Below are positions 1 through 12,830 of a DNA stretch of 64,000 nt, piece by piece (the first letter of the stretch is position 1; the number at the start of each line of letters is the position of its first letter). The translations under genes were made by a program, and so were the position numbers. Source of the stretch: Aquirufa sp. (GTDB lineage: Bacteria > Bacteroidota > Bacteroidia > Cytophagales > Spirosomataceae); the NCBI GenBank assembly GCA_040403415.1, contig JBBAKU010000005.1, positions 49,398 to 113,397 of the forward strand. Reading direction: 5' to 3'. The notes under the pieces are model-generated. The model was not told the origin of the DNA, made no database searches, and was given only the letters and a program-made list of their open reading frames with translations.

Positions 1-213
1 GTTTAATAAACGCATTTTAGCTTCATTAAATTATCAGTTTCTTGATAATTTATGCTCTCATTTACCATTTTACATTGTTTCTCCAAAAACAATCCTACAT
101 TTACCTCGGCCTAAGCGATCGATTAGGTACATCTGTTCCACCCTCCTCAAACAAGTTAATCTAGTCTAATTACTTGTGATTTTTTTGAAACGAAATCAAA
201 ATTTTAATTCCAA

Positions 214-221
214 TATCTTTG
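214..221 (+). promoter_or_regulatory. Bacteroidota sigma70 -7 element TATCTTTG
   Basis: Exact TAnnTTTG match about 55 nt upstream of the small ORF at 277. Confidence 0.45.
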
Positions 222-276
222 ATATATCTGTTTGAACAATGAGATAAATATTTCAACTAACCAGCCTTATAATCAT

Positions 277-372
277 ATGAAAAAGTACAAAGAATTGTTT
301 ATTATATTAATCTGTGGATTAATGGGAATTTTCACCTACAAGGTTTTACGTTTTATTTTTGAGAGATTTTAA
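277..372 (+). CDS. Putative 31-aa small membrane protein (not in ORF track)
   Basis: MKKYKELFIILICGLMGIFTYKVLRFIFERF*: basic N-terminus plus one hydrophobic helix, AT-rich leader, upstream -7 element. Confidence 0.4.
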   Translation: MKKYKELFIILICGLMGIFTYKVLRFIFERF

Positions 373-525
373 AACTATTTATATATCAATCTCCCCTATA
401 CGTTTAAGTAAAAATACTCTCATGAAACGGAGAGAAATGTTTGAAATTGGAGCATTTGTTTGCAATCCTTCAAGAGAAAAAGAATCCTTTGAAAATGCAA
501 CAACCCTAAATAAAAGGTCACAAAT

Positions 526-1626
526 TTAATTCAAATACTTTAACGCAATCTCCTCCCCAATCTGCTCTAAAATCTCAGCGGTCCTCGCGATTGAATCCGC
601 TGCATCTGTAGAACGTGACGCAATCGTAAACACGTCATTTTCATCCAAAAACAGAGGGAAATTAGCAGAACTTTCAAAGGCCCCCGAGACCAAAATAGTT
701 TGCTTAAAGACTTTATCACTACGTTTTACAACTTCAGACACTACTTTGCCGCCCCAAGTAGAGGAATCGATCTTGCCTTCGCCGGTGATAATGAAATCTG
801 CTTTTAAAAGGGCCCGATTAAAGTGGACTTTGTCCATTATCCAGCTGGAACCAGCAACGATTTTAGCGTTTAGGAAATAACGGGAGCCTGCTCCCAGCCC
901 GCCAGCTGCACCAGCACCGGGTTCTGAAGCGATGGATCCGAAGAAGGACGTTATATTATTTAGACCTTTATCTAATTGTTTAATTGCTGTGGCGGTCGCA
1001 CCTTTTTGAGCCGCGAAAACATGGGCTGCTCCATCGCTCCCAGCGAGTGGATTGCTTACGTCTGTAACGACGGTGAAAGTACAATCTATGGCCGATGGAC
1101 TTCCTATAGACGCGATTTTAACTAGATTTTCACCGATAGGTTGAACTGCAGCCCCATCTCCATCCAAAAAAGTCCAACCCATAGCAGCAGCCATTCCAAT
1201 TCCCGCATCATTTGTGGCTGAACCACCGATGTTGAGAATGATTTGGGTGGCGCCGCGTTGTAACGCATCCGCGATCAGCACTCCAGTTCCGAAAGTCGAA
1301 GTTTTAAGTGGATTTCGCTCCTTTATCGTTAAAAGGGCAAGGCCAGAAGCGCGGGCCATTTCGATGTAAGCCGTTTTTTGGTCAGCCAGCCATAAATAAT
1401 CTGCTTGAATGGGACGCATCAACGGATCGAACGTGTCTGCTGTAATCCAAATTCCGCCGTGCAATTGTTGAATCACTTCCAGGGTACCTTCCCCGCCATC
1501 GGCGAGGGGGAGGGTGGTGAAAACGGTTTTGGGACGACATTTCTTAATCCCTTTTTCAAGCGCTTCGCATACTTGCGAGGCAGAAAGAGAGCCTTTGAAC
1601 TTATCAGGAGAGATTAAAATATGCAC
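526..1626 (-). CDS. glxK: Glycerate kinase (GlxK/GarK family)
   Basis: ISPDKFKGSL, PLADGGEGT, GGSATNDAG, GAGAAGGLG and ITGEGKID motifs; likely GTG start at 1626. Confidence 0.92.
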   Translation of the reverse strand: MHILISPDKFKGSLSASQVCEALEKGIKKCRPKTVFTTLPLADGGEGTLEVIQQLHGGIWITADTFDPLMRPIQADYLWLADQKTAYIEMARASGLALLTIKERNPLKTSTFGTGVLIADALQRGATQIILNIGGSATNDAGIGMAAAMGWTFLDGDGAAVQPIGENLVKIASIGSPSAIDCTFTVVTDVSNPLAGSDGAAHVFAAQKGATATAIKQLDKGLNNITSFFGSIASEPGAGAAGGLGAGSRYFLNAKIVAGSSWIMDKVHFNRALLKADFIITGEGKIDSSTWGGKVVSEVVKRSDKVFKQTILVSGAFESSANFPLFLDENDVFTIASRSTDAADSIARTAEILEQIGEEIALKYLN

Positions 1627-1675
1627 AGCGATGGATTTATGCCGCAATTTAGCCACAATTCCTTAAATTTAAGGT

Positions 1676-2056
1676 ATGAGAATACTGACAGCGTTTGCCC
1701 TCTTATTTTTGATATGCGTTTCGTGTACGAATCAACCTGATTTGACCGGTTTCGATGTAGAAAGCTTTAAAAAAGACCGCGGAAGTTGTGGCGGAACGAG
1801 AGAAAAGCAGATCGACTGGCTTAAAACGCATAAAATGACATGGAAAGGAGTTAGCTCTAATGATTTGGAAGACATTCTGGGGAAACCCGATATTCAACAA
1901 TTAGCGGACCGAAACCAGGAATATTACGTGTATTTTTTGGAAAAAGGTCCTCATTGTGATAAAATTACCAATCCGTCTCAGGCGCGAACGATGGCTTTTC
2001 GTTTCAGCGCGATGGGATTAACGACTGAAATTACCTTTCAGCAAGGATTGCCCTGA
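1676..2056 (+). CDS. Lipoprotein, SmpA/OmlA(BamE)-like
   Basis: Lipobox CVSC after a hydrophobic stretch; GVSSNDLEDILGKPD resembles the SmpA/OmlA motif. Confidence 0.6.
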   Translation: MRILTAFALLFLICVSCTNQPDLTGFDVESFKKDRGSCGGTREKQIDWLKTHKMTWKGVSSNDLEDILGKPDIQQLADRNQEYYVYFLEKGPHCDKITNPSQARTMAFRFSAMGLTTEITFQQGLP

Positions 2057-2070
2057 TTAAAACTAAACCT

Positions 2071-2580
2071 ATGAAAAAAATTCTATTCCTATTCTTTATA
2101 AGCATTACTATGTCCCAGGCCCAAACGGCGCCAGCGCTCGATTTCTTCTGTGAACTGAAAGTAAAACTGGATCCTGCCTTAATCGTAGGCGAAACCCCTC
2201 ACGGAACGCGCCGCATTATTCCTATTATCGGTGGAACGGTGGAAGGACCGAAAATCAAGGGTGAAATCCTGAATGGTGGAGCCGATTGGCAAATATTGCG
2301 AGCGGATGGAGTAACCGAATTAGAAGCACATTACCAATTTAGAACGGATGATGGCACCTTGATTTATGTCAAAAATACAGGTATTCGTGCTGCCACTCCC
2401 GAAATCGCGGCACGATTAGCTAAAGGGGAAAAGGTAGATGCGAACGAATACTATTTCCGGGCGATGCCTAAATTCGATGCGCCTAAAGGCAAATACGATT
2501 GGGTCAACAACAGCCTCTTTGTATGTACGGGAGAGCGCTTGCCGGATTACGTGTTGATTCGTGTTTGGAAAGTAATGTAA
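2071..2580 (+). CDS. DUF3237 family protein with predicted Sec signal peptide
   Basis: GETPHGTRRIIPIIGGTVEGP, GGADWQ, TDDG and YYFR..PKF motifs; N-terminus MKKILFLFFISITMSQAQ. Confidence 0.88.
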   Translation: MKKILFLFFISITMSQAQTAPALDFFCELKVKLDPALIVGETPHGTRRIIPIIGGTVEGPKIKGEILNGGADWQILRADGVTELEAHYQFRTDDGTLIYVKNTGIRAATPEIAARLAKGEKVDANEYYFRAMPKFDAPKGKYDWVNNSLFVCTGERLPDYVLIRVWKVM

Positions 2581-3758
2581 TGCCGATGAGAGCGATACAA
2601 GTACTGATTATTTTGATCTGCTTTCTGTGCAACATGCTCGATGGCATGGATGTGTTGATCATTTCTTATACGGCTCCGGCGATTGCGAAGGCCTGGAGTA
2701 TTTCCCCAGCAAATTTAGGGATTGTGTTTAGTTCTGGCCTGGTGGGAATGACGGTGGGAGCGATATTTTTAGCTCCGCTGGCGGATCGTTTTGGGCGGAA
2801 GCCGTTAATGATTCTGGCGGCGGTGATTATGGGAACCTGTATTTATTTGACGTCCTACTCGACAGATGTGAACGTTTTAATGATTTACCGCTTTATCAGT
2901 GGGCTGGGAATCGGGACGATGATGGCGAGTACAGCGGCGATTACGGCGGAATATGCTCCTGCATCTACGCGCGATTTTTGGGTGAGCACGGTGGTGGCGG
3001 GCTATCCGGTGGGAGCCGTGTTAACGGGCATTTCGTCTGCGAAAATTATTGCAGAAAGCGGCTGGGAGCATCTATTTGAATTGGCGGGATATGCCACTTT
3101 TTTAGTGATTCCTATCTTGTTTTTCTTCCTGAAAGAGTCTGATGAATTTAAGGCCAAAGCAAAGCCAGAAGACGCCAAGATCGGCGCCTTGTTTACGTCT
3201 GATTTTAAGTGGAGCACTTGGCAGCTTTGGAGTGCCCTGTTCCTTTCCTTTACGACCCTTTATTTCTTGATGAACTGGATTCCAAAATTGGCCTCAAATG
3301 CTGGCCTATCGATGGAATTAGCCATTTATTCAGGAACGATCTTTAATCTGGGAGCCATCGTGGGTATTCCGGTGCAAGGCTATTTTTCGACGCGTTTTGG
3401 CTTGAAAAAATCGATCGGAGTTTTGTTATTGATTACGGCTGTTTTATTAGGCATTTTTGGACAATTTTCTGGATCTAATTTGATCTTAGTGGTGTTGTTC
3501 TTCCTCGGCTTCGGGGTGCAGGGCAGCTTTGTAGGCTTGTATGCCGTAGCGGCGAGAATGTATCCCACTGCCATCCGATCGACGGGTATTGGCTGGGCGA
3601 TCGGCATGGGTCGTTTAGGTGGTATTTTAGGTCCGATCTTAGGCGGCATTTTAGTGGGACTAGGATTGGGTATGGCCGAAAGCTTTTTGTTCTTCGCCTT
3701 GCCTTCCTTACTTGCCGGAATTATTACGCTAAAAATTAGTTCCCAAACCATTTCCTAA
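2580..3758 (+). CDS. MFS transporter, aromatic acid:H+ symporter (AAHS, PcaK/BenK-like)
   Basis: TM1 LDGMD, LADRFGRK, YPTAIRSTGIGWAIGMGRLG; ATG at 2580 overlaps the upstream stop (TAATG). Confidence 0.88.
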   Translation: MPMRAIQVLIILICFLCNMLDGMDVLIISYTAPAIAKAWSISPANLGIVFSSGLVGMTVGAIFLAPLADRFGRKPLMILAAVIMGTCIYLTSYSTDVNVLMIYRFISGLGIGTMMASTAAITAEYAPASTRDFWVSTVVAGYPVGAVLTGISSAKIIAESGWEHLFELAGYATFLVIPILFFFLKESDEFKAKAKPEDAKIGALFTSDFKWSTWQLWSALFLSFTTLYFLMNWIPKLASNAGLSMELAIYSGTIFNLGAIVGIPVQGYFSTRFGLKKSIGVLLLITAVLLGIFGQFSGSNLILVVLFFLGFGVQGSFVGLYAVAARMYPTAIRSTGIGWAIGMGRLGGILGPILGGILVGLGLGMAESFLFFALPSLLAGIITLKISSQTIS

Positions 3759-4819
3759 TGCGCAAACACAATTTCTTTCCTGGACCGGCGACTCTTCCCT
3801 TTGAGGTTATTCAAGAGGCAGCGGCGGGTTTAGTTGACTACAATGGGATGGGCGTTTCCATTGCGGAAATCAGCCACCGTTCACCCATTTTCACAGATTT
3901 AGTAGACGAGGCGAATGCGCTCGTGAAAAAACTCTATGGCCTTTCGGATGATTGGGCGGTGCTTTGGTTGCCCGGTGGAGCCTCCAGTCAGCTGACGGTT
4001 GCCCCGATGAATCTGACGGAACCTTCGGACAAGATTGCCTTTGTGGACACGGGGTTTTGGGCGGATAGAGCTATCGAAGCGGCGGCGAATGAGGCGAATG
4101 CCTTCTTTTTAGCTTCTTCCAAAGACACGAACTACGACCGAATCCCTAAAATCACAGACGTTCAAGGCGCACGATATTTACACATAGTTTCGAATGAGAC
4201 GATCGACGGAACACAATACCACGCGTTCCCCGACGTCGATGTCCCCTTAGTCGCAGATATGACGTCTGATTTCTTGTCGAGACCTTTGCCGATGGAGAAA
4301 TTTGGGGTGATTTTCGCATCAGCTCAGAAGAATTTTGGGATTGCAGGGATTACCTGTGTGCTAGTCAACAAAGCAGTTTTGCCCGAGAAAAATAGCCGAA
4401 AGGTTCCTAAGATTTTTAACTACCATACGCACATCGCAGAAAATTCACTTTACCATACCATCCCGACTTATCCGGTTTATGTGGCGCTATTGATGCTTCG
4501 GTATATTGATAAAAAAGGTGGACTATCGGAAATGCAACGTTTGAGTCAGCAAAAATCCGCTTTGATTTACAACGAAATCGACCGAAACCCCCTGCTTCAG
4601 GGAATTGTGGCTACCGAAGATCGCTCCGTGATGAACGCCTGCTTTACGAGTCAATCGCCGGAGTTGGATCAAAAAATTAACTTGTTTTTAGAGCGAAATG
4701 ACATTGTGGGAATTAAAGGTTTTCCTACCAAAGGAGGTTTCAGAGCCTCCATCTACAACGGCCAACCGCTAGCCAGCGTGGCTCATTTAGTCGATTTATT
4801 GCAAAACTTGCCCCTATGA
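3758..4819 (+). CDS. SerC-like class V PLP aminotransferase, divergent paralog
   Basis: GPATLP, EISHRS, SNETIDG, AQKN (PLP Lys191) and RASIYN; GHR motif replaced by GFP. Confidence 0.85.
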   Translation: MRKHNFFPGPATLPFEVIQEAAAGLVDYNGMGVSIAEISHRSPIFTDLVDEANALVKKLYGLSDDWAVLWLPGGASSQLTVAPMNLTEPSDKIAFVDTGFWADRAIEAAANEANAFFLASSKDTNYDRIPKITDVQGARYLHIVSNETIDGTQYHAFPDVDVPLVADMTSDFLSRPLPMEKFGVIFASAQKNFGIAGITCVLVNKAVLPEKNSRKVPKIFNYHTHIAENSLYHTIPTYPVYVALLMLRYIDKKGGLSEMQRLSQQKSALIYNEIDRNPLLQGIVATEDRSVMNACFTSQSPELDQKINLFLERNDIVGIKGFPTKGGFRASIYNGQPLASVAHLVDLLQNLPL

Positions 4820-6054
4820 AAATATTAATTGCCGGCGGAGGAATTGGAGGATTAGTGACAGCGATGCGCTTGCATCAGGCCGGGTTTGAAGTGAAGGTTT
4901 TTGAGTCCGTAGAGGAAGTGAAACCGCTTGGGGTGGGAATCAATTTGCTACCTCACGCTGTACGTGTGTTGACAAATATTGGTTTGTTACCGAAAGTCTC
5001 AGCCATTGCGGTAGAGACAAAGGAGTTAATCTATGCGAACCGTTTTGGCCAGTTTTTCTGGTCAGAACCGCGGGGAAAATTCGCTGGATATCGCTGGCCG
5101 CAGTTTTCGATTCACCGCGGGAAATTCCAGGTGATGCTTTGGGAAGAAACCCTAAAAACTATCGGTGACGAGAACATAAAAACGAATTGCCATTTACATT
5201 CTTTTGAAGAAAAGGAGGACAAAATCACGGCTACGTTTATCAACAAGGAAACGGGGCAGATCGTAGCGGAGGAAGAGGGAGATATCTTGATAGGTGCGGA
5301 TGGAATCAATTCCGTTTTGCGTCAAAAATTATGCCCTAATGAGGGTGGAGTCGTATTTTCTGGCAATATTTTATACCGTGGAACAGCTGAGATAAAGCCT
5401 TATAAATCAGGTTCTTCCATGGCTATGATTGGGTCCAACAAGCAGAAAATGGTCATCTATCCCATAGGCGAACCCGACGCAGAGGGGAATCAAGTTATCA
5501 ACTGGGTAGCGAATGTTCGCGAACCGGAAGGGGCAAACATCACGGTGCGCGATTGGAATCGCAAAGTGGAAAAAGGTCCGTTACTGGAACTTTACAAAGA
5601 CTGGAAATTTGACTGGATCGATGTGCCGGAGATGATCGAAAAAACAGATGGCGGCATCTTTGAATTCCCCATGTCAGATAGAAATCCATTGGACAAATGG
5701 TCTTTCTCCCGTGTCACTCTTTTAGGGGATGCGGCGCACCCGATGTACCCCATCGGATCGAATGGCGCATCGCAAGCGATTTTGGATGCGGACGCTTTGG
5801 CCTTAGCTTTGTTAGCAGAAAAAGACGTCATTCAAGCGCTCGTTCATTACGACAAAGAACGCGTCCCTGCCACGGCAAAAGTGGTCCTACAAAATCGCCA
5901 AAAAGGACCCGATTTCATTATGGATTTAATGGAAGATCGTTTCCCAGCTGGCTTTAGTGAGGCCGAAATTCCGCACGAAGAACTAGCACAAATTATGAAT
6001 CAATATAAACAAGTAGCCGGTTTTGACATCCAAAGCCTGAACGCTAAAACGTAG
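4816..6054 (+). CDS. Group A FAD-dependent monooxygenase, PhzS-like
   Basis: GGGIGG, PLGVGINLLP, WSEPRG..AGYRWPQFSIHRG, IGADG, GDAAHPMYPIGSNGASQAI. Confidence 0.88.
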   Translation: MKILIAGGGIGGLVTAMRLHQAGFEVKVFESVEEVKPLGVGINLLPHAVRVLTNIGLLPKVSAIAVETKELIYANRFGQFFWSEPRGKFAGYRWPQFSIHRGKFQVMLWEETLKTIGDENIKTNCHLHSFEEKEDKITATFINKETGQIVAEEEGDILIGADGINSVLRQKLCPNEGGVVFSGNILYRGTAEIKPYKSGSSMAMIGSNKQKMVIYPIGEPDAEGNQVINWVANVREPEGANITVRDWNRKVEKGPLLELYKDWKFDWIDVPEMIEKTDGGIFEFPMSDRNPLDKWSFSRVTLLGDAAHPMYPIGSNGASQAILDADALALALLAEKDVIQALVHYDKERVPATAKVVLQNRQKGPDFIMDLMEDRFPAGFSEAEIPHEELAQIMNQYKQVAGFDIQSLNAKT

Positions 6055-6058
6055 AACT

Positions 6059-6442
6059 ATGAAAAGACGTCACTTTATTGCCTCGGCTGGCTTATTAGCA
6101 AGCACTGGTGTTCCAGCTACTGCAGCGGCTAAAAAACCTTTATTGCACCACGTGTTTTTTTGGCTGAATAACCCGAATTCCGAAGAGGATAAACAACAAT
6201 TAATTAAAGGCTTGAAAGCGCTGAAAGGCATTCCTTCGATCAGGGAAATTCACATCGGGACCTTAGCTTCGACCGAAAAACGCGAGGTGGTGGATACCAG
6301 CTGGGATGTGTCAGAGTTGATGTTTTTCGATGATGAGGCCGGCCAAAAAGTGTATCAAGATCACCCCATCCACGTCGATTTCGTAAAGAATTATGCCCAC
6401 TTGTGGAAGAAAGTAATCGTGTATGATTCGGTGGATGCATAG
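6059..6442 (+). CDS. Dabb family (stress-responsive A/B barrel) protein with Tat signal
   Basis: KRRHFI twin-arginine leader; HHVFFWL and YQDHPIH..FV motifs. Confidence 0.85.
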   Translation: MKRRHFIASAGLLASTGVPATAAAKKPLLHHVFFWLNNPNSEEDKQQLIKGLKALKGIPSIREIHIGTLASTEKREVVDTSWDVSELMFFDDEAGQKVYQDHPIHVDFVKNYAHLWKKVIVYDSVDA

Positions 6443-6555
6443 ATGAATTTGTTCCCAAATCCGTAAACGGAACAAAAACTCGAGATCGTTCTGACTGCGC
6501 GAATGTGAAATCCACTTTCTTTGGAAAAATTAGTAACCCTTTAAAAACCAAAGAA

Positions 6556-7083
6556 ATGAAAAAAATCATTCTATTATTCGCACTTGCGGGATCAATCTTC
6601 GCTTGTACAAAAAAAGAAGACGGTGCAGTAGCATCTGCAAGCACTTCAACTGATCCTTCCGCAGTTTTAGCTGGAGTTGTAATCGATACTTCCGCTAACG
6701 TAGGTTTAGTGATGAAGGCAATTCGTGCGATTGAATCAGGTGATTCTGCCGCTTACCGTGCAACATATGCGCCAGATGTCGTATTTCATGACAATTTAGA
6801 TTCAATGGGTCTTAATGAAAATATGACCATGTTTAAAACAATGGCGGAAAAAGGCATTAAGTTAAAAGTCGAGATGGGGCCAGTTTGGGAAAATCAATTC
6901 GATAAGCCTTCTAAGAAAAAAGGCTATACAAACTATGTCATGAGTAAGAGTACCTTTATCTTCACAAGAGGTGAAAAGCAAACGAAAATGGTCATTTTCG
7001 CAGTAGATGCGATCAAAGATGGCAAGCAAGTCGAAGAGTGGTTACACTATGACAGAAGTGCTTTTGTTGAAATTTCAAAATAA
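6556..7083 (+). CDS. Lipoprotein, NTF2/SnoaL-like fold
   Basis: Lipobox IFAC; YAPDVVFHD and IKDGKQVEEW...D patterns typical of SnoaL-like folds; start moved to MKKII. Confidence 0.65.
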   Translation: MKKIILLFALAGSIFACTKKEDGAVASASTSTDPSAVLAGVVIDTSANVGLVMKAIRAIESGDSAAYRATYAPDVVFHDNLDSMGLNENMTMFKTMAEKGIKLKVEMGPVWENQFDKPSKKKGYTNYVMSKSTFIFTRGEKQTKMVIFAVDAIKDGKQVEEWLHYDRSAFVEISK

Positions 7084-7087
7084 AGGA

Positions 7088-7118
7088 TTGGCGCAGCGTC
7101 CTGCGGACGCTGCGCCAA
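7088..7118. terminator. 14-bp perfect GC-rich hairpin between convergent genes
   Basis: TTGGCGCAGCGTCC-TGC-GGACGCTGCGCCAA followed by CTTTT. Confidence 0.7.
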
Positions 7119-7121
7119 CTT

Positions 7122-7577
7122 TTACTTCATTTCGCCATACGGGATGGTGTTTACGTAAAGCGATAATTCTTTCGCTACCTCCTTCATCAAAATCCAACGC
7201 TCTTGATTCGCTAGCAACATGATTTCGATATTATCCGTTTTCAAGTCTTTCGAGATATAGTAATCTTTACGCGTCTCACTATAATAAGCTGACTTATCAT
7301 CGTTCGTCGTCTCTCGTGTTCTGTTCAATAAATCATTGTTAAAACGGCGGAATTTTTCCGGTGTATCTAAGATTAAAGTGAACCATAGATTTCTGGTGCT
7401 GACAAAGGCCAAAGTCACCTCAAAGTGCTCTTGACCCTCGTCTGAGGTCACTTTGGAATAATTGATTTTGCAGTTTCCGTTGATGATACGGGCTTGAATG
7501 AGTTCTGTTTTAGGTTGTGCAAACGCGCTTACCGCGAACACAAACAACAGGATGAAGCTGAGTGTTATTTTTTTCAT
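7122..7577 (-). CDS. Hypothetical secreted protein
   Basis: Signal peptide MKKITLSFILLFVFAVSAFA-Q; no recognised domain. Confidence 0.65.
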   Translation of the reverse strand: MKKITLSFILLFVFAVSAFAQPKTELIQARIINGNCKINYSKVTSDEGQEHFEVTLAFVSTRNLWFTLILDTPEKFRRFNNDLLNRTRETTNDDKSAYYSETRKDYYISKDLKTDNIEIMLLANQERWILMKEVAKELSLYVNTIPYGEMK

Positions 7578-7683
7578 ATGGGTTTTATTATACGGCAAGG
7601 TAATAAAATAATTTCTCCGTCCTACTCAACCCTAGGACACCGGCATCGGTTTCTTTTCGTACATTCGGTTGAAACCTATTTAT

Positions 7684-10600
7684 ATGAAAAAGTCGATCCT
7701 TGCTTGCTTGCTCTATGTGCTTTCTTTTGTGGCACAAGCGCAGTTCTCCCTACAAAATTTACAAGTTGAATACCAAAAGGCTCCGCTCGGACTTGATGAG
7801 GCACATCCACGCTTTTCATGGCAGATGAATTCGACTGTTCGCAATGCAAAACAAAGCGCCTATCGAATCGTCGTACAGACAGAATCTGGCCAGATTGTTT
7901 GGGATTCCAAAAAGCAAAACACAGACATTTCCATAGGCATTCCATATAACGGTGAAGCCTTACAAGCGAAAACGGGGTACCGCTGGACGCTGGAGGTTTG
8001 GGATTCCGCCAAAAAGAAATCGACACAGAATTCCCATTTCGAAACGAGCCTGATGAATCCAAGTATCGATGCCTGGAAAGGAGCGGAATGGATCGGATCC
8101 AATGACTTGAATTTCTACACGCATTACCTATCTGTTTATAAGTTTCAATACGGAGTTCAAATCGATCAAGGCACGAAAGCAAGCTTTGTTTTTGGGGCAA
8201 ATGACCCGCGACTGCAGAACCGCAATCTGAATATTCAAGACGTGTCTAGCGGCATAAACCAATCTTATGTACGTCTTGAATTAGACCTCTCTGGTCTAGC
8301 TACATCCGATTCAGGCCAAGCTAACTTCCATATTTACCGGGTAGGTTACGACAAAAAAGACCGGGCAGATCAGGCCTTTAAAAGCTTTAAAATTCCATTA
8401 GCTGTCATCCATGCTGGAAATAAATCTCAGAAACATACGGTGTTTGCCGAATGCAATTTTGGCGTATTTGATTTCTACATTGACGCGGTAGACAAAGCCC
8501 ATAAGATTAATCCCACCCCTATAAATGCGAGTCCTTATGCTGCCACAGGCGTGAACCTGAACCCAATCGGGGCTGGAAATAATTTCATTAGTTTTCCGAT
8601 GCTTTCGGAAATCGGGTTTGCCACAGAGGCGGGAGAATCCGCCCGTTTCTCGGAGGTGATCATTCGCAATTTTAGACTGCCTAGCAATCCCTTATTTGAA
8701 GCTTCTCAGAATCCTGGATTATGGAAAGATTTACCTTTTGATGGAAAGACATTTAGCGTTTCTGGAAAATTTAGCGTAGCTAATCCAAGCCGACACGCGG
8801 CGCCGATGTTGCGCACAGAATTTGTAGCGACTACAGGAAAAACAATCAAAAGTGCCCGAATTTATGCCACGGCGCGTGGAATATATGAGCTGTATTTAAA
8901 TGGGAAACGGGTAGGAGACGAGTTCTTTAATCCGGGATTAACTCAATATAATAAAACGCATACCTACCAGGTTTTTGATGTGACATCGCTATTAAACATA
9001 GGTAAAAATGCCTGGGGAGCCTGGTTAAGTGAAGGCTGGTGGAGCGGTAATATTACGTACAGTGGTGATAGTTGGAACTATTTTGGTGATCGTCAATCAC
9101 TGCTAGCTACCTTAGAAATTCGCTATACAGATGGAACTGAGCAGGTTATTCAGACAAATCCGAACACTTGGAAATCGTTCACGGATGGACCCATCCGCGT
9201 GGGAAGTTTCTTCCAAGGTGAAGTGTATGATGCCCGAAAAAATGCAGCGATCGAAGGCTGGTCAGTGACAAATTTCAATGATAAAAACTGGAAGCCGGCT
9301 GCAAAAATCGGCTTAGAGGGAACGAGTTTCGCCCTAGATTACCAAGGGATGAAATTAGTGAATCACTTGGATGATCGCGTAACGGTGCAGCAAGTACTGC
9401 AAGCGAAGTCCATCGCCGAACCTAGAAAAGGCGTCTTTATCTATGATATGGGCCAAAATATGGTCGGATTTCCTAAGATTTTCATCAAAAACGGAAAGCC
9501 GGGACAGGTCATCACGATGCGTTTTGCCGAAGTTTTATACCCCGATTTAGCGGAATATGCCGGCCAAAAAGGAATGATTATGCTCGAGAATATCCGAGCA
9601 GCCTTAGCACAAGATATCCACATTTTGAAAGGTGGAGACGAATACATTCAACCGCGCTTCACTTTCCACGGCTACCGTTACCTGGAAATAACAGGAGTCG
9701 AACAAGCGCCTGAATTGCCGCAGGTAGCCGGAATCGTTCTATCCTCTATTAAAAATATCAGTTCTTCCTACGAGACATCTAACCCCATGGTCAACAAATT
9801 GTGGTCTAACATTACCTGGTCGATGCGCTCGAATTTCTTATCTATTCCCACCGATACGCCTGCGCGTAATGAACGCATGGGCTGGAGCGGTGACATCAAT
9901 GTGTTCTCTAAAACAGCCACGATGATGGCCCCTGTGAATAACTTCATGCGCCGCCACTTACTAGGCATGCGGGATGTGCAGCGTGCCGACGGCCGATTCA
10001 CTGATGTGGCGCCGATGGGCGGAGGTTTTGGCGGAACCTTGTGGGGTAGCGCGGGTATCGTGATTCCCTGGGAAACCTATTTACAATATGGCGACAAGGC
10101 GATGCTGACGGAGCATTATCCGGCGATGAAACGCTATATGACTTTCCTTGATTCGAAAGTCAAAGATGGCATATTAAACGAAGGGCCATTAGGTGATTGG
10201 CTCAGTCCGGAGGGCAATAAAAACGACAACACGCTATTCTGGATGGCCTACCAGGCAGCAGATTTAGCGATCGTTTCGAAAGCTGCCCGTGTTTTAGGAT
10301 TAACCATAGAGGCGGATCAGTATTTAGCCCAAAGCGAAGCCAAAAAAATCGCCTTCAACGAAATTTACGTAGACAAAATCACCTTTAAAACCATCAAATC
10401 TGGCGTAAAAACCGGCTTTATGGGACCGCCAAATGCGAATGCTGCACCGGAAGCGTCGGATAAAGGTCAATTAATGGACACGCAGGCGTCTTATGCGATT
10501 CCTTTGGCATTAAACGTCTTCAACGCAACTAATGCCCCTCACGCGCTGGCACATTTAGTCGAAACCATCACCCGTTCGAATAAAGACGATCAAGGCGAAG

Positions 10601-11190
10601 CCCGTCCACCCTATTCCTTGATGACGGGATTCATCGGGACTGCCTCTATTTCTGAAGCCCTTTCAGCAAATGGAAAACACGACATCGCCTACGGTCTATT
10701 GACCACAAAAACTTACCCCTCTTGGTTGTATTCGGTGGCGAATGGAGCGACCAGTATTTGGGAAAGACTGAACTCCTACACGATCGAAAACGGATTCGGG
10801 GGGAACAACAGCATGAACTCCTTTAACCACTATTCCTTCGGTGCCGTGGCAGCTTGGATGTACACGCATTCGTTAGGGATTCAACGCGATCCAGAAAGTC
10901 CAGGTTATCAACATTTCATATTGCAGCCTACACCTGATCTTTCTGGTAAGATTACGTATGCCAAAGGGAATGTAGAAACCATGTACGGTAACATCAAAAG
11001 CGAGTGGTCGAAGCAAGGAAATAAAACGACTTATCGTTTCACTATTCCGGCGAATACTTCCGCTCAAATTAAGTTAATGGGTCAGAAAATAGTGAAGGGA
11101 TTACCTCCGGTAAAAACAAAAACCAGCGCGGATCGAATCGAATTCGAGCTCGGCGCTGGCCTTTATGAACTAGTGGTGGAAGTAGATTAG
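7684..11190 (+). CDS. Alpha-L-rhamnosidase, GH78, secreted
   Basis: PRFSW, TARGIYE, DMGQNMVG, PRFTFHGYRY, PTDTPARNERMGWSGD, GATSIWERLN, SMNSFNHY. Confidence 0.93.
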   Translation: MKKSILACLLYVLSFVAQAQFSLQNLQVEYQKAPLGLDEAHPRFSWQMNSTVRNAKQSAYRIVVQTESGQIVWDSKKQNTDISIGIPYNGEALQAKTGYRWTLEVWDSAKKKSTQNSHFETSLMNPSIDAWKGAEWIGSNDLNFYTHYLSVYKFQYGVQIDQGTKASFVFGANDPRLQNRNLNIQDVSSGINQSYVRLELDLSGLATSDSGQANFHIYRVGYDKKDRADQAFKSFKIPLAVIHAGNKSQKHTVFAECNFGVFDFYIDAVDKAHKINPTPINASPYAATGVNLNPIGAGNNFISFPMLSEIGFATEAGESARFSEVIIRNFRLPSNPLFEASQNPGLWKDLPFDGKTFSVSGKFSVANPSRHAAPMLRTEFVATTGKTIKSARIYATARGIYELYLNGKRVGDEFFNPGLTQYNKTHTYQVFDVTSLLNIGKNAWGAWLSEGWWSGNITYSGDSWNYFGDRQSLLATLEIRYTDGTEQVIQTNPNTWKSFTDGPIRVGSFFQGEVYDARKNAAIEGWSVTNFNDKNWKPAAKIGLEGTSFALDYQGMKLVNHLDDRVTVQQVLQAKSIAEPRKGVFIYDMGQNMVGFPKIFIKNGKPGQVITMRFAEVLYPDLAEYAGQKGMIMLENIRAALAQDIHILKGGDEYIQPRFTFHGYRYLEITGVEQAPELPQVAGIVLSSIKNISSSYETSNPMVNKLWSNITWSMRSNFLSIPTDTPARNERMGWSGDINVFSKTATMMAPVNNFMRRHLLGMRDVQRADGRFTDVAPMGGGFGGTLWGSAGIVIPWETYLQYGDKAMLTEHYPAMKRYMTFLDSKVKDGILNEGPLGDWLSPEGNKNDNTLFWMAYQAADLAIVSKAARVLGLTIEADQYLAQSEAKKIAFNEIYVDKITFKTIKSGVKTGFMGPPNANAAPEASDKGQLMDTQASYAIPLALNVFNATNAPHALAHLVETITRSNKDDQGEARPPYSLMTGFIGTASISEALSANGKHDIAYGLLTTKTYPSWLYSVANGATSIWERLNSYTIENGFGGNNSMNSFNHYSFGAVAAWMYTHSLGIQRDPESPGYQHFILQPTPDLSGKITYAKGNVETMYGNIKSEWSKQGNKTTYRFTIPANTSAQIKLMGQKIVKGLPPVKTKTSADRIEFELGAGLYELVVEVD

Positions 11191-12830
11191 CCTAGTGCTT
11201 TTCTGCCCACAGCATCGGGGTTATTAACTAATTGACACGTATCATCGAGGATCATGGTTTCCCCATTTTCCTTCGTGTATGGCTTCCAAGCAGGTAATCC
11301 TCCTCCATTCGGGTTACCAGTTTTGATGAAACTCAAGAAAGATTTTGCCATCTTCGAAGACAAGGCTCTCGGTCTTTTACCACCTCCCGTATGGGTTAAC
11401 ATCAGGTCAGTATTGTAGAACCAAAAACAAATATCATCGCAGTGAAATGCACGCATACGTCCGTCAAAAAGCGGTGGTTGCCATCCGAACCAAGACATAT
11501 ACACTGGCGCCTTACGTTGCGACACTTTCGCATCTGCAGCAGCAATGGCTCCTTTTCTATTTGATAGGATCATCGCCCACACTTCGACCGGTTTTGCTTT
11601 AGGGAAGTTTTGGCTATATGCCTCTACTATTTTACCAGCATCCGCTCCGAAGCGGGGCTTAATTTTTTCTACTACTCCCGCTAAAGTAATCTCTTCTAAA
11701 CTCGCATCCGTGCGGCTAGGGCTGGACTCATGGAAGGTCGTATTAATGATCAATGGAATGTCCGCTGAGAAATGATTCGGATCAGAGAAAAACGGTTGAT
11801 CATTCATCGTCACCCCATCCGCTACCGGTGAAAATCCGCCGCGCGAGATGTTCATTTTCTTCGCTTCTTCAGCGAATTTTTCTACCGCACGCGTAGTAAT
11901 ATCAATGTATTCTCTCCACGGAATTTGTTGTAATTTCTCAATTTCACCTGGCTTAAAACCCGCTTCCTCCATCACCTTCAAGCCTAGCTTTTCTGCATAC
12001 TCCTTGTTCACCCCTGTTAAAGAGGTTCCACTCAAGGCCACTGCTTTATGAAACAAGCCTTTTGCCGCTGGCATATTCATTAGGCAGGTTGCTTTTGCTC
12101 CACCTCCAGATTGACCTATAATGGTCACATTATTAGGGTCTCCACCAAAGTTCGCAATGTTATTTTTCACCCATTCAAGCGCTGCCACCATATCTAAGTT
12201 GCCCACATTTCCTGAGTGCGGATGACCGCCCGCTGCCTTTAAATGCGAATATCCGAAGGGTCCTAGACGGTGATTAATCGAACAGAAAACAATGTTGCCT
12301 AAACGGCTCAAATTCTCGCCATGGTAACCATCTTGCTCAATCGCATTCCCATTCGTAAATCCTCCACCATGCAACCAAACGACCACCGGACGCTTTCCTG
12401 AATCAATCGCAGGAGTCCATACATTTAACTTCAAACAATCTTCCGAAACATCATCGTAATTCCAGTGATCCACAAAAGAGGCATAGGCATTTGAATAACG
12501 CTTCTCCATGATTTGAGGAGCCGTATTCCCCCACCAAACACAAGGCTTGATTTCCTTCCACGCAGCAGGTTTAACTGGCGGCATGAATCGGTTTTTACCA
12601 GACGTATCAGCCCCATAAGGAATGCCTAAAAATTGATTGATGCCACGTAACACAAAGCCTCGCACTTTGCCATACTCTGTATTGGCCACCGCGATGTTAT
12701 CGCCAACAAATAAAATTTGATCATCCGTTGATCCCGCCGCAGGGGACGCGTTCAAAGGACTTGAGCCCACACTGAGTGTGGCAGCTCCTAATCCAAGGGA
12801 TTGGATAAAATTTCTACGATTTGATTTCAT
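11187..12830 (-). CDS. Carboxylesterase type B with Tat signal
   Basis: NRRNFI leader; SEDCLKLNVW, HGGGF, nucleophile GQSGG, FHCDD. Confidence 0.92.
   Translation of the reverse strand: MKSNRRNFIQSLGLGAATLSVGSSPLNASPAAGSTDDQILFVGDNIAVANTEYGKVRGFVLRGINQFLGIPYGADTSGKNRFMPPVKPAAWKEIKPCVWWGNTAPQIMEKRYSNAYASFVDHWNYDDVSEDCLKLNVWTPAIDSGKRPVVVWLHGGGFTNGNAIEQDGYHGENLSRLGNIVFCSINHRLGPFGYSHLKAAGGHPHSGNVGNLDMVAALEWVKNNIANFGGDPNNVTIIGQSGGGAKATCLMNMPAAKGLFHKAVALSGTSLTGVNKEYAEKLGLKVMEEAGFKPGEIEKLQQIPWREYIDITTRAVEKFAEEAKKMNISRGGFSPVADGVTMNDQPFFSDPNHFSADIPLIINTTFHESSPSRTDASLEEITLAGVVEKIKPRFGADAGKIVEAYSQNFPKAKPVEVWAMILSNRKGAIAAADAKVSQRKAPVYMSWFGWQPPLFDGRMRAFHCDDICFWFYNTDLMLTHTGGGKRPRALSSKMAKSFLSFIKTGNPNGGGLPAWKPYTKENGETMILDDTCQLVNNPDAVGRKALG

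Follow-up and report, generated by a model that had tools for sequence, protein, structure and literature searches.

The window, a stretch of 64,000 nucleotides from the genome of a freshwater Aquirufa sp., contains between positions 2071 and 6442 five open reading frames, all on the plus strand (2071-2580, 2580-3758, 3758-4819, 4816-6054 and 6059-6442). In order, they encode a DUF3237 protein with predicted export, an MFS transporter resembling aromatic acid:H+ symporters (AAHS), a SerC-like aminotransferase, a PhzS-like FAD monooxygenase (FMO) and a dimeric alpha/beta barrel (Dabb) protein with a Tat signal. Base-by-base reading located TAATG stop/start overlaps at 2578-2582 and 3756-3760, an ATGA overlap at 4816-4819 and a 4-nt gap (6055-6058) ahead of the Dabb gene. 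Every position given in the preliminary description for the co-orientation and coupled junctions was thereby confirmed, and its five family assignments held in profile and structure-sequence searches. Judged from this layout, the five genes form a compact operon.

The transcription unit may be longer than 2071-6442, as the lipo126 gene terminates 14 nt upstream of the DUF3237 gene and just one hairpin terminator is strong, that at 7087-7119 (bidirectional; 15-bp stem, 10 G-C pairs), which probably closes the plus-strand unit. This hairpin follows a gene for a SnoaL/NTF2-like lipoprotein (6505-7083, plus strand; weak SnoaL_2/SnoaL matches; true start probably near 6556). A hairpin search found no terminator between the Dabb and lipoprotein genes, and the latter, a possible sixth member, comes after Dabb in all five-gene clusters (60-99% identity). 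The Dabb protein itself (6059-6442, plus strand; PF07876, 9e-20) bears a KRRHF twin-arginine motif at its N-terminus (MKRRHFIASAGLL), from which Tat export is predicted. It is a lineage-specific member, confined to the five-gene version of the cluster in Aquirufa; a 69% identical homologue occupies an unrelated locus of an Aquirufa genome lacking the cluster. Outside the operon, a GH78 alpha-L-rhamnosidase (7669-11190, plus strand; Bac_rhamnosid domains) co-varies with the cluster. No orthologue was found in four Aquirufa genomes without the cluster, and orthologues come after FMO in Sandaracinomonas and at loci L127 and L131.

The DUF3237 (UPF0311) beta-barrel protein (2071-2580, plus strand) matches PF11578 over its full length (profile positions 1-149 of 149, 1e-51). 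It carries an N-terminal Sec-type signal peptide (MKKILFLFFISITMSQAQ) and is predicted to be periplasmic. Its best PDB matches were uncharacterised UPF0311 structures at 115-125 bits (3g7g, 125 bits; also 3c5o), compared with 40 bits for the characterised PhnH and 24 bits for 9m2y, the other solved DUF3237 entry. Homologues linked to an MFS gene have the signal-bearing extension at their N-terminus, and FMO-only pairs lack it; predicted export of DUF3237 is correlated with a neighbouring MFS gene.

For the transporter (2580-3758, plus strand; MFS_1, 2e-50), the best NCBIfam family was TIGR00895 (AAHS), at 322 bits and under the family cut-off of 418.55; the MhpT and PcaK models scored 240 and 224 bits. 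The protein is 62% identical to the MFS at the head of the Sandaracinomonas pca region and 67-75% identical to those of DUF3237-MFS-FMO loci, a context in which it appears to behave as an AAHS transporter despite the sub-threshold score. The group A FAD-dependent monooxygenase (4816-6054, plus strand) belongs to PRK07538 (551 bits; cut-off 400), homologues of which numbered thousands in a protein search. Its best PDB match was PhzS (2rgj/3c96; 276 bits, about 43% identity over 363 amino acids as read by eye), and the FAD fingerprints AGGGIGG, GADGINS and GDAAHPM are present and aligned to PhzS. More distant relatives include NicC, HpxO and MHPCO, and tetracycline destructases were weak matches.

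The gene between transporter and FMO (3758-4819, plus strand) encodes a SerC-family class-V aminotransferase that public records label SerC or phosphoserine aminotransferase. It scored 376 bits against NF003764, over the cut-off of 253, and 357 bits against TIGR01364, under the cut-off of 443.6. The PLP lysine K191, D167 and the alpha-carboxylate arginine R329 did not vary when the protein was aligned with canonical SerC and with phosphoserine aminotransferases (PSATs) from the PDB, and W101 and H40-R41 are also kept. However, the canonical GHR(S/V)xGG reads GFPTKGG and NTPP reads HTIP. Phe-Pro (in the motif F-P-T) replaces the phosphate-binding His-Arg pair across a whole clade, monophyletic in our tree (support 100/100), whose canonical neighbours read HRSV. 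The preliminary description of a "rewired SerC" thus proved apt: with Phe-Pro for the His-Arg dyad and HTIP for NTPP, this is not a normal phosphoserine aminotransferase.

We consider it highly improbable that the protein is nevertheless an ordinary phosphoserine/phosphohydroxythreonine aminotransferase among functionally unrelated neighbours, although it passes an equivalog cut-off, is annotated as SerC, retains all PLP-binding residues and is the only SerC_1-type gene in its genome. In addition to the clade-wide motif loss, that genome has a SerB-SerA fusion with an adjacent PSAT-like aminotransferase gene on contig C3, away from the cluster, and relatives likewise have the fusion with its own adjacent aminotransferase. 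Nor does the gene behave as a housekeeping SerC_1: it has no serA linkage and is not genus-wide, with matches in 7 out of 18 other Aquirufa genomes and none in the remaining 11, several of them 96-99% complete. Larger genomes (Haliscomenobacter and Lewinellaceae) carry a canonical HRSV/NTPP SerC alongside the FPT paralogue, and adjacency to FMO is retained across three different gene orders. By these comparisons the SerC-like gene is a lineage-specific add-on, an accessory paralogue. In many Saprospiraceae the FPT paralogue is solitary or next to GNAT/DinB genes, and one Lewinellaceae genome encodes it but no FMO orthologue; adjacency is the one line of evidence that suggests a part for the enzyme in an aromatic route.

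Other Aquirufa genomes carry all five genes in identical order, with 86-99% protein identity. Of 18 further Aquirufa genomes sampled, 8 have a full-length FMO match, and the module was found in 2 of 400 high-quality Bacteroidota genomes. Within the relatives set, all eight genomes with a full-length FMO match had the SerC-like gene; two FMO fragments located at contig ends were not accompanied by it. Among metagenome loci, a DUF3237 gene lay no more than 3 kb from FMO at 9 of the 10 whose FMO orthologue is 60% or more identical and at 16 of 51 whose FMO is more distant; none of the 51 had a SerC-like gene. DUF3237-MFS-FMO arrangements without SerC-like were seen at L123 and L125, and FMO-DUF3237 at L126 and L127. 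Some FMO-DUF3237 loci (L124, L126) stand amid unrelated genes, and neighbourhoods vary.

On this distribution, the evolutionary core is FMO plus DUF3237, often with an AAHS-type MFS. Co-occurrence of the five families across genomes therefore held for the FMO/DUF3237 pair, seen at nearly all close loci, and failed for the full set, which is confined to one Aquirufa lineage, as is Dabb. The five are not a co-evolving set. As FMO and DUF3237, with or without MFS, are common without the aminotransferase, transamination is better regarded as an add-on than as the central step originally envisaged.

The company kept by FMO orthologues elsewhere bears on the substrate. Orthologues of 63-75% identity adjoin DUF3237 and pca genes, and at least two pca/pob genes are present at 5 of the 10 metagenome loci with close orthologues. 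These five adjoin the protocatechuate/beta-ketoadipate genes pcaHGBL, pobA and pcaIJF, and some add CoA ligase, hydratase, LigW-like, MetE-like and feruloyl-esterase-like genes. In Sandaracinomonas (L041/L131) the order is MFS, AraC, pcaH, pcaG, pcaB, pcaL, pobA, pcaIJ, pcaF, a 3-nt gap, SerC-like, FMO and a hydrolase. At L137/L157, FMO-DUF3237-MFS lies between ECH/CoA-ligase/SDR/LigW-like genes and MetE-like/tannase-like/AraC/pcaHGBL genes, whereas L136/L138 read pobA, pcaIJ, pcaF, ACAD, FMO, DUF3237. Haliscomenobacter L120 has ACAD-FMO-DUF3237-esterase-MFS-SDR-ECH with a divergent MarR gene and a BD-FAE esterase. What recurs at these loci are protocatechuate/4-hydroxybenzoate genes, hydroxycinnamate-type CoA genes, esterases and GH78 rhamnosidases, a company indicative of plant phenolic acids. 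The earlier view of a conserved, undescribed unit tied to aromatic-acid metabolism is supported.

The same neighbourhoods favour a plant phenolic acid over the N-containing aromatic or heterocyclic acid first proposed (aminobenzoate, phenylglycine, kynurenine/kynurenate-like or phenazine-like), which would be taken up, transaminated as a central step and decarboxylatively hydroxylated for nitrogen scavenging. That proposal has some appeal: the closest characterised relative of FMO, PhzS, uses a phenazine carboxylate, the further relatives NicC, HpxO and MHPCO act on N-heterocycles, a PLP aminotransferase is translationally coupled to FMO and accompanies every full-length FMO in the relatives set, and missing downstream ring cleavage fits nitrogen-only scavenging. 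Yet equally similar FMO orthologues at L123-L127 do without an aminotransferase, none of the 51 more distant loci has a SerC-like gene, and at no locus is a neighbour typical of N-heterocycle or aminoaromatic breakdown (deaminase, amidase or molybdenum hydroxylase) present. With nothing in the neighbourhoods pointing to such a substrate, and recurrent neighbours that fit plant phenolics, we consider this route unlikely.

The preliminary description found no ring-cleavage dioxygenase in the window, and widening the search to the whole genome gave the same answer for a ring-cleavage pathway. The genome has no pcaH/G/B/L or pobA. PF00775 was absent from four genomes (G000, G014, G010 and G004; the control, G033, was positive), no homogentisate dioxygenase was found in the five genomes searched, and searches of cluster-bearing Aquirufa revealed no ring-cleavage dioxygenase of either the intradiol (pcaHG-type) or the homogentisate kind. 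The operon therefore probably transforms its substrate and does not mineralise it. The Aquirufa module has no visible downstream pathway.

Two alternatives draw on this absence. In one, the module confers resistance: FMO would inactivate a toxic redox-active aromatic (a phenazine, quinone, antibiotic or plant phenolic), MFS would export it, and exported DUF3237 and Dabb would bind or convert it in the periplasm. The lack of pcaHG-type or homogentisate ring cleavage, the patchy, accessory distribution (2/400 Bacteroidota; FMO in 8/18 other Aquirufa), the tetracycline destructases among group A FMOs (weak matches here) and the MFS score, which falls under the AAHS cut-off so that the protein could instead be an exporter, would all suit it. 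But the module is repeatedly embedded in catabolic pca and CoA-ligase operons, the transporter best matches the importers PcaK and MhpT, and the aminotransferase has no obvious resistance role; we give this reading only a small chance. Less probable still is a small biosynthetic or tailoring cassette in which a hydroxylated aromatic amino acid, such as a DOPA-like compound formed from imported arylpyruvate or aryl-lactate, is made as the precursor of a pigment or signal. An aminotransferase and a ring hydroxylase are the least that such a conversion requires, no catabolic steps are seen to follow, and each cluster-bearing Aquirufa genome has one YgiD-size LigB-family (DOPA-dioxygenase-like) gene. 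That gene is unlinked, however, lying elsewhere in the genome, and a LigB-family gene was present in all five genomes searched; other biosynthetic genes are absent and most homologous loci are catabolic in character.

On balance, we lean towards a peripheral aromatic-acid module that imports and modifies a plant-derived aromatic acid, with FMO and DUF3237 as its core and the SerC-like enzyme added. Gene order, family membership, motif loss, distribution and neighbourhoods are direct observations, from which we infer the substrate class, the order of steps and the direction of transamination. The ancient core would be the PhzS-like FMO and DUF3237, joined in several lineages by an AAHS-type MFS. 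In the periplasm, exported DUF3237 would first carry out a cofactor-free reaction on a carboxylated phenolic of plant origin; if it resembles PhcF/PhcG/PinX, this would be a decarboxylation or ring opening via a quinone methide. MFS would take up the still-acidic product, which cytoplasmic FMO would hydroxylate using NAD(P)H and O2. PhzS, salicylate hydroxylase and NicC hydroxylate by carboxyl replacement, and FMO would probably, in like manner, swap a carboxyl group ortho or para to the phenol for a hydroxyl. The one argument for this order is that an exported DUF3237 acting on the FMO product would make no sense. In pathway-bearing genomes the product would enter the 4-hydroxybenzoate/protocatechuate beta-ketoadipate route; in Aquirufa, the operon most likely serves detoxification or carbon/nitrogen scavenging, not mineralisation.

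The SerC-like enzyme would have arisen as a paralogue that took on a new function and came to be encoded immediately upstream of FMO in Flectobacillaceae and some Saprospiraceae. As PLP chemistry and alpha-carboxylate binding are kept and half of the phosphate site is lost, a non-phosphorylated substrate is most likely. The enzyme most likely interconverts a 2-oxo acid and an amino acid, probably aromatic or hydrophobic, with Glu/2-oxoglutarate, and would offer a side entrance to or exit from the module. A bolder reading, which we hold to be possible but doubtful, is that the FPT SerC is the first PSAT-family enzyme for a non-phosphorylated aromatic amino/2-oxo acid and, with FMO and DUF3237, forms an undescribed entry to 4-hydroxybenzoate/protocatechuate in Bacteroidota. 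Candidate substrates would then include tyrosine/4-hydroxyphenylpyruvate or a hydroxyphenylglycine, and the PRK07538 and UPF0311 families would gain a physiological function.

PRK07538 "flavin-dependent oxidoreductases" and UPF0311 are two large uncharacterised families that here form a conserved pair, and the gene company of the pair gives a testable hypothesis of plant-phenolic/lignin-fragment funnelling in Bacteroidota, a phylum noted for polysaccharide and not aromatic catabolism. The SerC paralogue provides a clear natural case of an enzyme from an essential pathway that has given up its phosphate site and joined another operon. For freshwater ecology, the operon suggests how small-genome Aquirufa cope with phenolics freed during plant-glycan degradation.

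As the preliminary description held, no described pathway matches this gene set; none did so among the known systems compared here. Its statement on DUF3237 decarboxylases was also correct: PhcF/PhcG of Sphingobium SYK-6, and PinX of Novosphingobium too, decarboxylate the lignin-derived dimers DCA-CC and lariciresinoate (PMC12607616, PMC9942872). PhnH of Penicillium herquei is a DUF3237 hydroalkoxylase. All share with the window protein the Pfam family and a small cofactor-free beta-barrel, and relatives of the window cluster adjoin lignin/phenylpropanoid catabolic genes. Uncharacterised UPF0311 proteins (3g7g, 3c5o) resemble the window protein much more strongly than these enzymes do; in contrast to them it is predicted to be exported, and the annotated neighbourhoods contain no GMC oxidase or lignostilbene dioxygenase partners. 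Feruloyl esterases free 8-5' benzofuran diferulic acid from plant cell walls; DCA-CC, which we take to be that form of diferulic acid, would fit the esterase and GH78 neighbours.

With PhzS, the 5-methylphenazine-1-carboxylate 1-monooxygenase of Pseudomonas aeruginosa, the window FMO has fold and PRK07538 subfamily in common. The GxGxxG, GADG and GDAAH motifs are shared with decarboxylating group A hydroxylases of the PhzS type, the same kind as salicylate hydroxylase, NicC, vanillate 1-hydroxylase and 4-hydroxybenzoate 1-hydroxylase. Its partners differ from those of PhzS, being DUF3237, MFS and pca genes; no phenazine genes (phzA-G, phzM) were among the annotated neighbours in the window to 18369 or at the related loci examined, and decarboxylative chemistry is suggested by analogy. 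The aminotransferase shares the class-V fold-type I of PSAT SerC/PdxF (E. coli 1bjn; Bacillus 1w3u, 1w23; 274 bits to solved PSATs), with the PLP Lys, Asp, Trp stack, N-terminal-site His-Arg and alpha-carboxylate Arg in common. It departs from them in its C-terminal phosphate ligands (Phe-Pro, and His-Thr-x-Pro for Asn-Thr-Pro-Pro) and in being an accessory paralogue, unlinked to serA, beside canonical or alternative PSATs. Unlike the protocatechuate branch of the beta-ketoadipate pathway in Pseudomonas and Acinetobacter, which has PcaK and PobA as peripheral functions, the window genome is without those genes, and the SerC-like/FMO/DUF3237 trio is in no described pca regulon. Elsewhere, the module lies in or beside pcaHG-pcaB-pcaL-pobA-pcaIJ-pcaF, and Sandaracinomonas and several metagenome loci have, as in that branch, an AraC regulator and an AAHS-type transporter.

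Five open reading frames, all on the plus strand, occupy positions 2071-6442 of the window (C5:49398-113397 of a 2.26 Mb genome that is 85% complete, and whose nearest named relatives are Aquirufa originis, A. antheringensis and A. esocilacus). Read base by base, their junctions are TAATG at 2578-2582 and 3756-3760, ATGA at 4816-4819, and a 4-nt gap before 6059. The orientation, overlaps and families reported in the preliminary description were thus all confirmed, and the gene overlaps suggest that the five genes are co-transcribed. The transcription unit may be longer, as a gene for a 126-aa lipoprotein stops 14 nt 5' of the DUF3237 gene and the sole strong terminator (7087-7119) is found only 3' of a SnoaL-like lipoprotein gene (6505-7083), itself downstream of the Dabb gene. 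This element looks like a bidirectional terminator: a perfect 15-bp G+C-rich hairpin, flanked on either strand by T-runs, that separates the SnoaL-like gene from a convergent 158-aa open reading frame. Matches to a sigma-70 promoter model, which does not cover Bacteroidota promoters, were at least as frequent in shuffled sequence, and an Rfam scan of window positions 1-8000 (E <= 0.1) returned no riboswitch or leader.

The operon is located in a variable region of the genome. The pair formed by a glycerate kinase gene and the 126-aa lipoprotein gene is kept in other Aquirufa without the cluster, with homology ending at about 2056, and a search of four Aquirufa genomes without the cluster did not find the GH78 gene that follows the operon. 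The latter gene encodes a 1173-aa alpha-L-rhamnosidase convergent with a 547-aa carboxylesterase/BD-FAE-like gene (together 7669-12830). The adjoining glycerate kinase was considered as a sign of a non-phosphorylated serine route; this was rejected because the pair is conserved in genomes without the cluster, and the link is further weakened by several five-gene clusters that have no glycerate kinase. Just 19 nt separate the listed GTG start of this gene (526-1675) from the lipoprotein gene that diverges from it. As its Pfam match starts at residue 13, translation probably begins some 30 nt inside the listed start, leaving space for divergent promoters.

Families were assigned by profile searches and by comparison with solved structures. 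The first protein belongs to DUF3237 (PF11578, 1e-51) and has a predicted N-terminal Sec-type signal peptide, which its solved homologues lack. For the MFS transporter, the best family was that of the aromatic acid:H+ symporters (TIGR00895), at 322 bits against a cut-off of 418, followed by MhpT and PcaK. The third is a SerC-family aminotransferase (NF003764, 376 bits, over the cut-off; TIGR01364, under the cut-off). The fourth is a group A FAD monooxygenase (FMO) of subfamily PRK07538 (551 bits); among solved structures it matches PhzS best (276 bits; about 43% identity, read by eye). The Dabb protein carries the twin-arginine motif KRRHF.

The SerC-like protein was aligned with solved phosphoserine aminotransferases and canonical Bacteroidota SerC. 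It retains the PLP lysine and aspartate, the tryptophan stack, the first of two His-Arg pairs and the alpha-carboxylate arginine, but the second His-Arg pair is gone (GHRSxGG has become GFPTKGG, and NTPP has become HTIP), in agreement with its initial description as a rewired SerC. Since two of the four phosphate ligands are lost while His40-Arg41 is retained, the alignment suggests that the enzyme can still bind glutamate/2-oxoglutarate and that its second substrate lacks a phosphate group and is probably more hydrophobic. In a maximum-likelihood tree, all variants with Phe-Pro-Thr at this site formed one clade (100/100 support), sister to canonical Chitinophagales SerC among the sequences sampled when the tree was midpoint-rooted. 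Large Haliscomenobacter and Lewinellaceae genomes encode a canonical HRSV/NTPP SerC alongside the variant, which occurs in only 7 of 18 other Aquirufa genomes; several of those that lack it are 96-99% complete. The window genome carries its housekeeping serine pathway on contig C3 (L114:171-3159, minus strand). There, a 636-aa SerB-SerA fusion, which combines a HAD-IB phosphatase domain with a phosphoglycerate dehydrogenase matching PRK11790 at 646 bits, is followed 1 nt downstream by a 358-aa distant class-V aminotransferase that scores merely 114-126 bits on SerC models. The same arrangement is present in Sandaracinomonas, A. echingensis and one Spirosomataceae MAG (54-91% identity). By these comparisons the operon gene is a re-tooled paralogue and not the housekeeping enzyme. 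A variant-clade SerC in an Aquirufa MAG (L048:10001-11056) has YHVV in place of FPTV at the phosphate site and is solitary, with no FMO within 10 kb.

We screened 80 loci, drawn from a scan of species-representative genomes for the variant SerC, by tblastn with the window proteins. The complete five-gene order was restricted to the A. antheringensis/originis/esocilacus-like lineage (86-99% identity). In A. echingensis, A. regiilacus and A. avitistagni the order is SerC-like-FMO-DUF3237, the DUF3237 being shorter and devoid of a signal peptide; SerC-like-FMO-DUF3237(-DUF3237)-MFS was found at two loci, and in most Saprospiraceae, Haliscomenobacter and Lewinellaceae the SerC variants were solitary. 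Other loci with FMO orthologues of 65-71% identity have no aminotransferase and read DUF3237-MFS-FMO or FMO-DUF3237. On an Aquirufa-like MAG contig (L035:222-2312), a SerC-like gene of an FPIK variant is directly followed by Dabb and SnoaL-like genes with no FMO; the monooxygenase gene appears to have been lost by natural deletion.

As an FMO orthologue was present in just 2 of 400 high-quality genomes across the phylum, co-occurrence was counted on metagenome loci instead of named genomes. A scan seeded with diverse FMO orthologues yielded another 80 loci, of which only those with enough downstream flank were counted. Where the FMO was at least 60% identical, DUF3237 lay within 3 kb at 9 of 10 loci, while 5 of 10 had a SerC-like gene and 3 of 10 the MFS gene; below 60% identity, DUF3237 was found at 16 of 51 loci and the SerC-like gene at none of 51. 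On this distribution, the ancient unit is FMO plus DUF3237, and the MFS, SerC-like and Dabb genes are successive lineage-specific additions. The five families therefore do not form one co-evolving set, the full order being confined to one Aquirufa lineage. Dabb is the weakest member; a homologue 69% identical and without the RR motif is found at an unrelated locus in a cluster-less Aquirufa genome. DUF3237 has a signal peptide where an MFS gene adjoins it and none in the plain FMO-DUF3237 pairs examined.

Genes flanking the module in relatives point to its metabolic setting. In Sandaracinomonas limnophila (L041) and a metagenome locus (L131), an MFS gene is followed by an AraC regulator, pcaH, pcaG, pcaB, a pcaD/pcaC fusion, a pobA-like hydroxylase, a fused pcaIJ CoA-transferase and a pcaF thiolase, then after a 3-nt gap by the SerC-like gene, the FMO, a dienelactone-hydrolase/BD-FAE-type hydrolase and a GH78 rhamnosidase. 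The MFS and GH78 proteins are 62% and 61% identical, respectively, to the window MFS and to the rhamnosidase after the Aquirufa operon; a GH78 orthologue is likewise 3' of the FMO module at L127. Two further loci (L137/L157) combine AraC, enoyl-CoA hydratase, CoA ligase, SDR, a LigW/ACMSD-type amidohydrolase, FMO, a predicted exported DUF3237, MFS, a short MetE-like protein, a tannase-like hydrolase, AraC and pcaHGBL. At L136/L138, pobA, pcaIJ, CoA ligase, pcaF and acyl-CoA dehydrogenase genes precede the FMO-DUF3237 pair, and a Haliscomenobacter operon comprises acyl-CoA dehydrogenase, FMO, DUF3237, esterase, MFS, SDR and hydratase, with a divergent MarR regulator and BD-FAE esterase. At least two pca/pob genes lay within 10 kb at 5 of 10 close-orthologue FMO loci. 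Such a set of neighbours is characteristic of peripheral routes that funnel plant hydroxycinnamate or lignin-derived acids into protocatechuate. No neighbours typical of N-heterocycle or amino-aromatic catabolism were seen in the examined loci, so the amino-aromatic substrate at the centre of the preliminary description is not favoured.

Several other neighbours were recorded. Short MetE-like (Meth_synt_2) genes of 367-369 aa lie beside FMO-DUF3237-MFS in Haliscomenobacter (L120:15737-16846) and at a metagenome locus (L137:13678-14781). The large aromatic catabolic cluster of the latter contains two small "23S rRNA intervening sequence protein" genes (PF05635; L137:8480-8833 and 11766-12134), one of them between DUF3237 and MFS. 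Directly 5' of FMO-DUF3237 at L126 (4076-9490), 2-oxoacid:ferredoxin oxidoreductase alpha and beta genes are split by HNH endonuclease and Fic/DUF4172 genes, and this interruption makes the oxidoreductase a doubtful FMO partner. An FMN-dependent 2-hydroxyacid dehydrogenase at L127 was set aside as a single case.

In the window genome, 85% complete, no pcaH/G/B/L or pobA and no intradiol, LigB-type or homogentisate dioxygenase was found, in line with the preliminary description, which noted no ring-cleavage dioxygenase in the window. Neither intradiol nor homogentisate dioxygenases were found in three near-complete Aquirufa with the five-gene cluster; the Sandaracinomonas control was positive for the intradiol family. 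Each of the three has just one LigB-family gene, distant from the operon, of about 264-274 aa, the size of YgiD/DOPA-dioxygenase (G014:C1:1661188-1661826, G010:C10:143414-144052 and G004:C1:145096-145707). pcaH was not found in 31 relatives, a set with no positive control among the genomes searched. As the frame MFS ... SerC-like-FMO ... GH78 is common to Aquirufa and Sandaracinomonas, the Aquirufa copy may be a pared-down form of the pca-linked arrangement, or pca genes may have been inserted into the module in Sandaracinomonas. The operon of the window genome most likely transforms its substrate only in part, either detoxifying phenolics freed during glycan degradation or scavenging.

We propose that DUF3237 acts on the incoming compound, in the periplasm where an MFS gene is present and otherwise in the cytoplasm; with either location, it should precede the FMO. 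The MFS transporter would import the still-acidic product, which the FMO would hydroxylate, plausibly displacing a carboxyl group next to a phenol by analogy with PhzS, salicylate hydroxylase and NicC. At the edge of the route, the SerC-like enzyme would turn a non-phosphorylated 2-oxo acid into an amino acid or the reverse.

Characterized DUF3237 proteins include cofactor-free decarboxylases/ring openers of phenolic dimers (PhcF/PhcG and PinX; PMC12607616, PMC9942872). PhnH, of the same family, is a reverse-type hydroalkoxylase. The window protein is far nearer to uncharacterized UPF0311 proteins than to any of these characterized members. DCA-CC, the substrate of PhcF/G, is the 8-5' benzofuran form of diferulic acid and is freed from plant cell walls by feruloyl esterases. 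Esterase, GH78 and GH140-like neighbours would be in keeping with a diferulate-type substrate; given the relationship to UPF0311, this is a lead and not a result.

In the literature searched for DUF3237, UPF0311 and PhzS homologues, no paper reported the five-gene set, as the preliminary description had supposed, nor was there any description of the conserved FMO(PRK07538)-DUF3237 pair, of its exported-DUF3237/MFS variant or of the recruited Phe-Pro-Thr SerC paralogue. The finding provides a good functional handle on two uncharacterized families and a tidy example of an enzyme being recruited. Each protein comes from a known superfamily, and the logic is a known one, that of a transporter and a peripheral hydroxylase feeding a central aromatic pathway.
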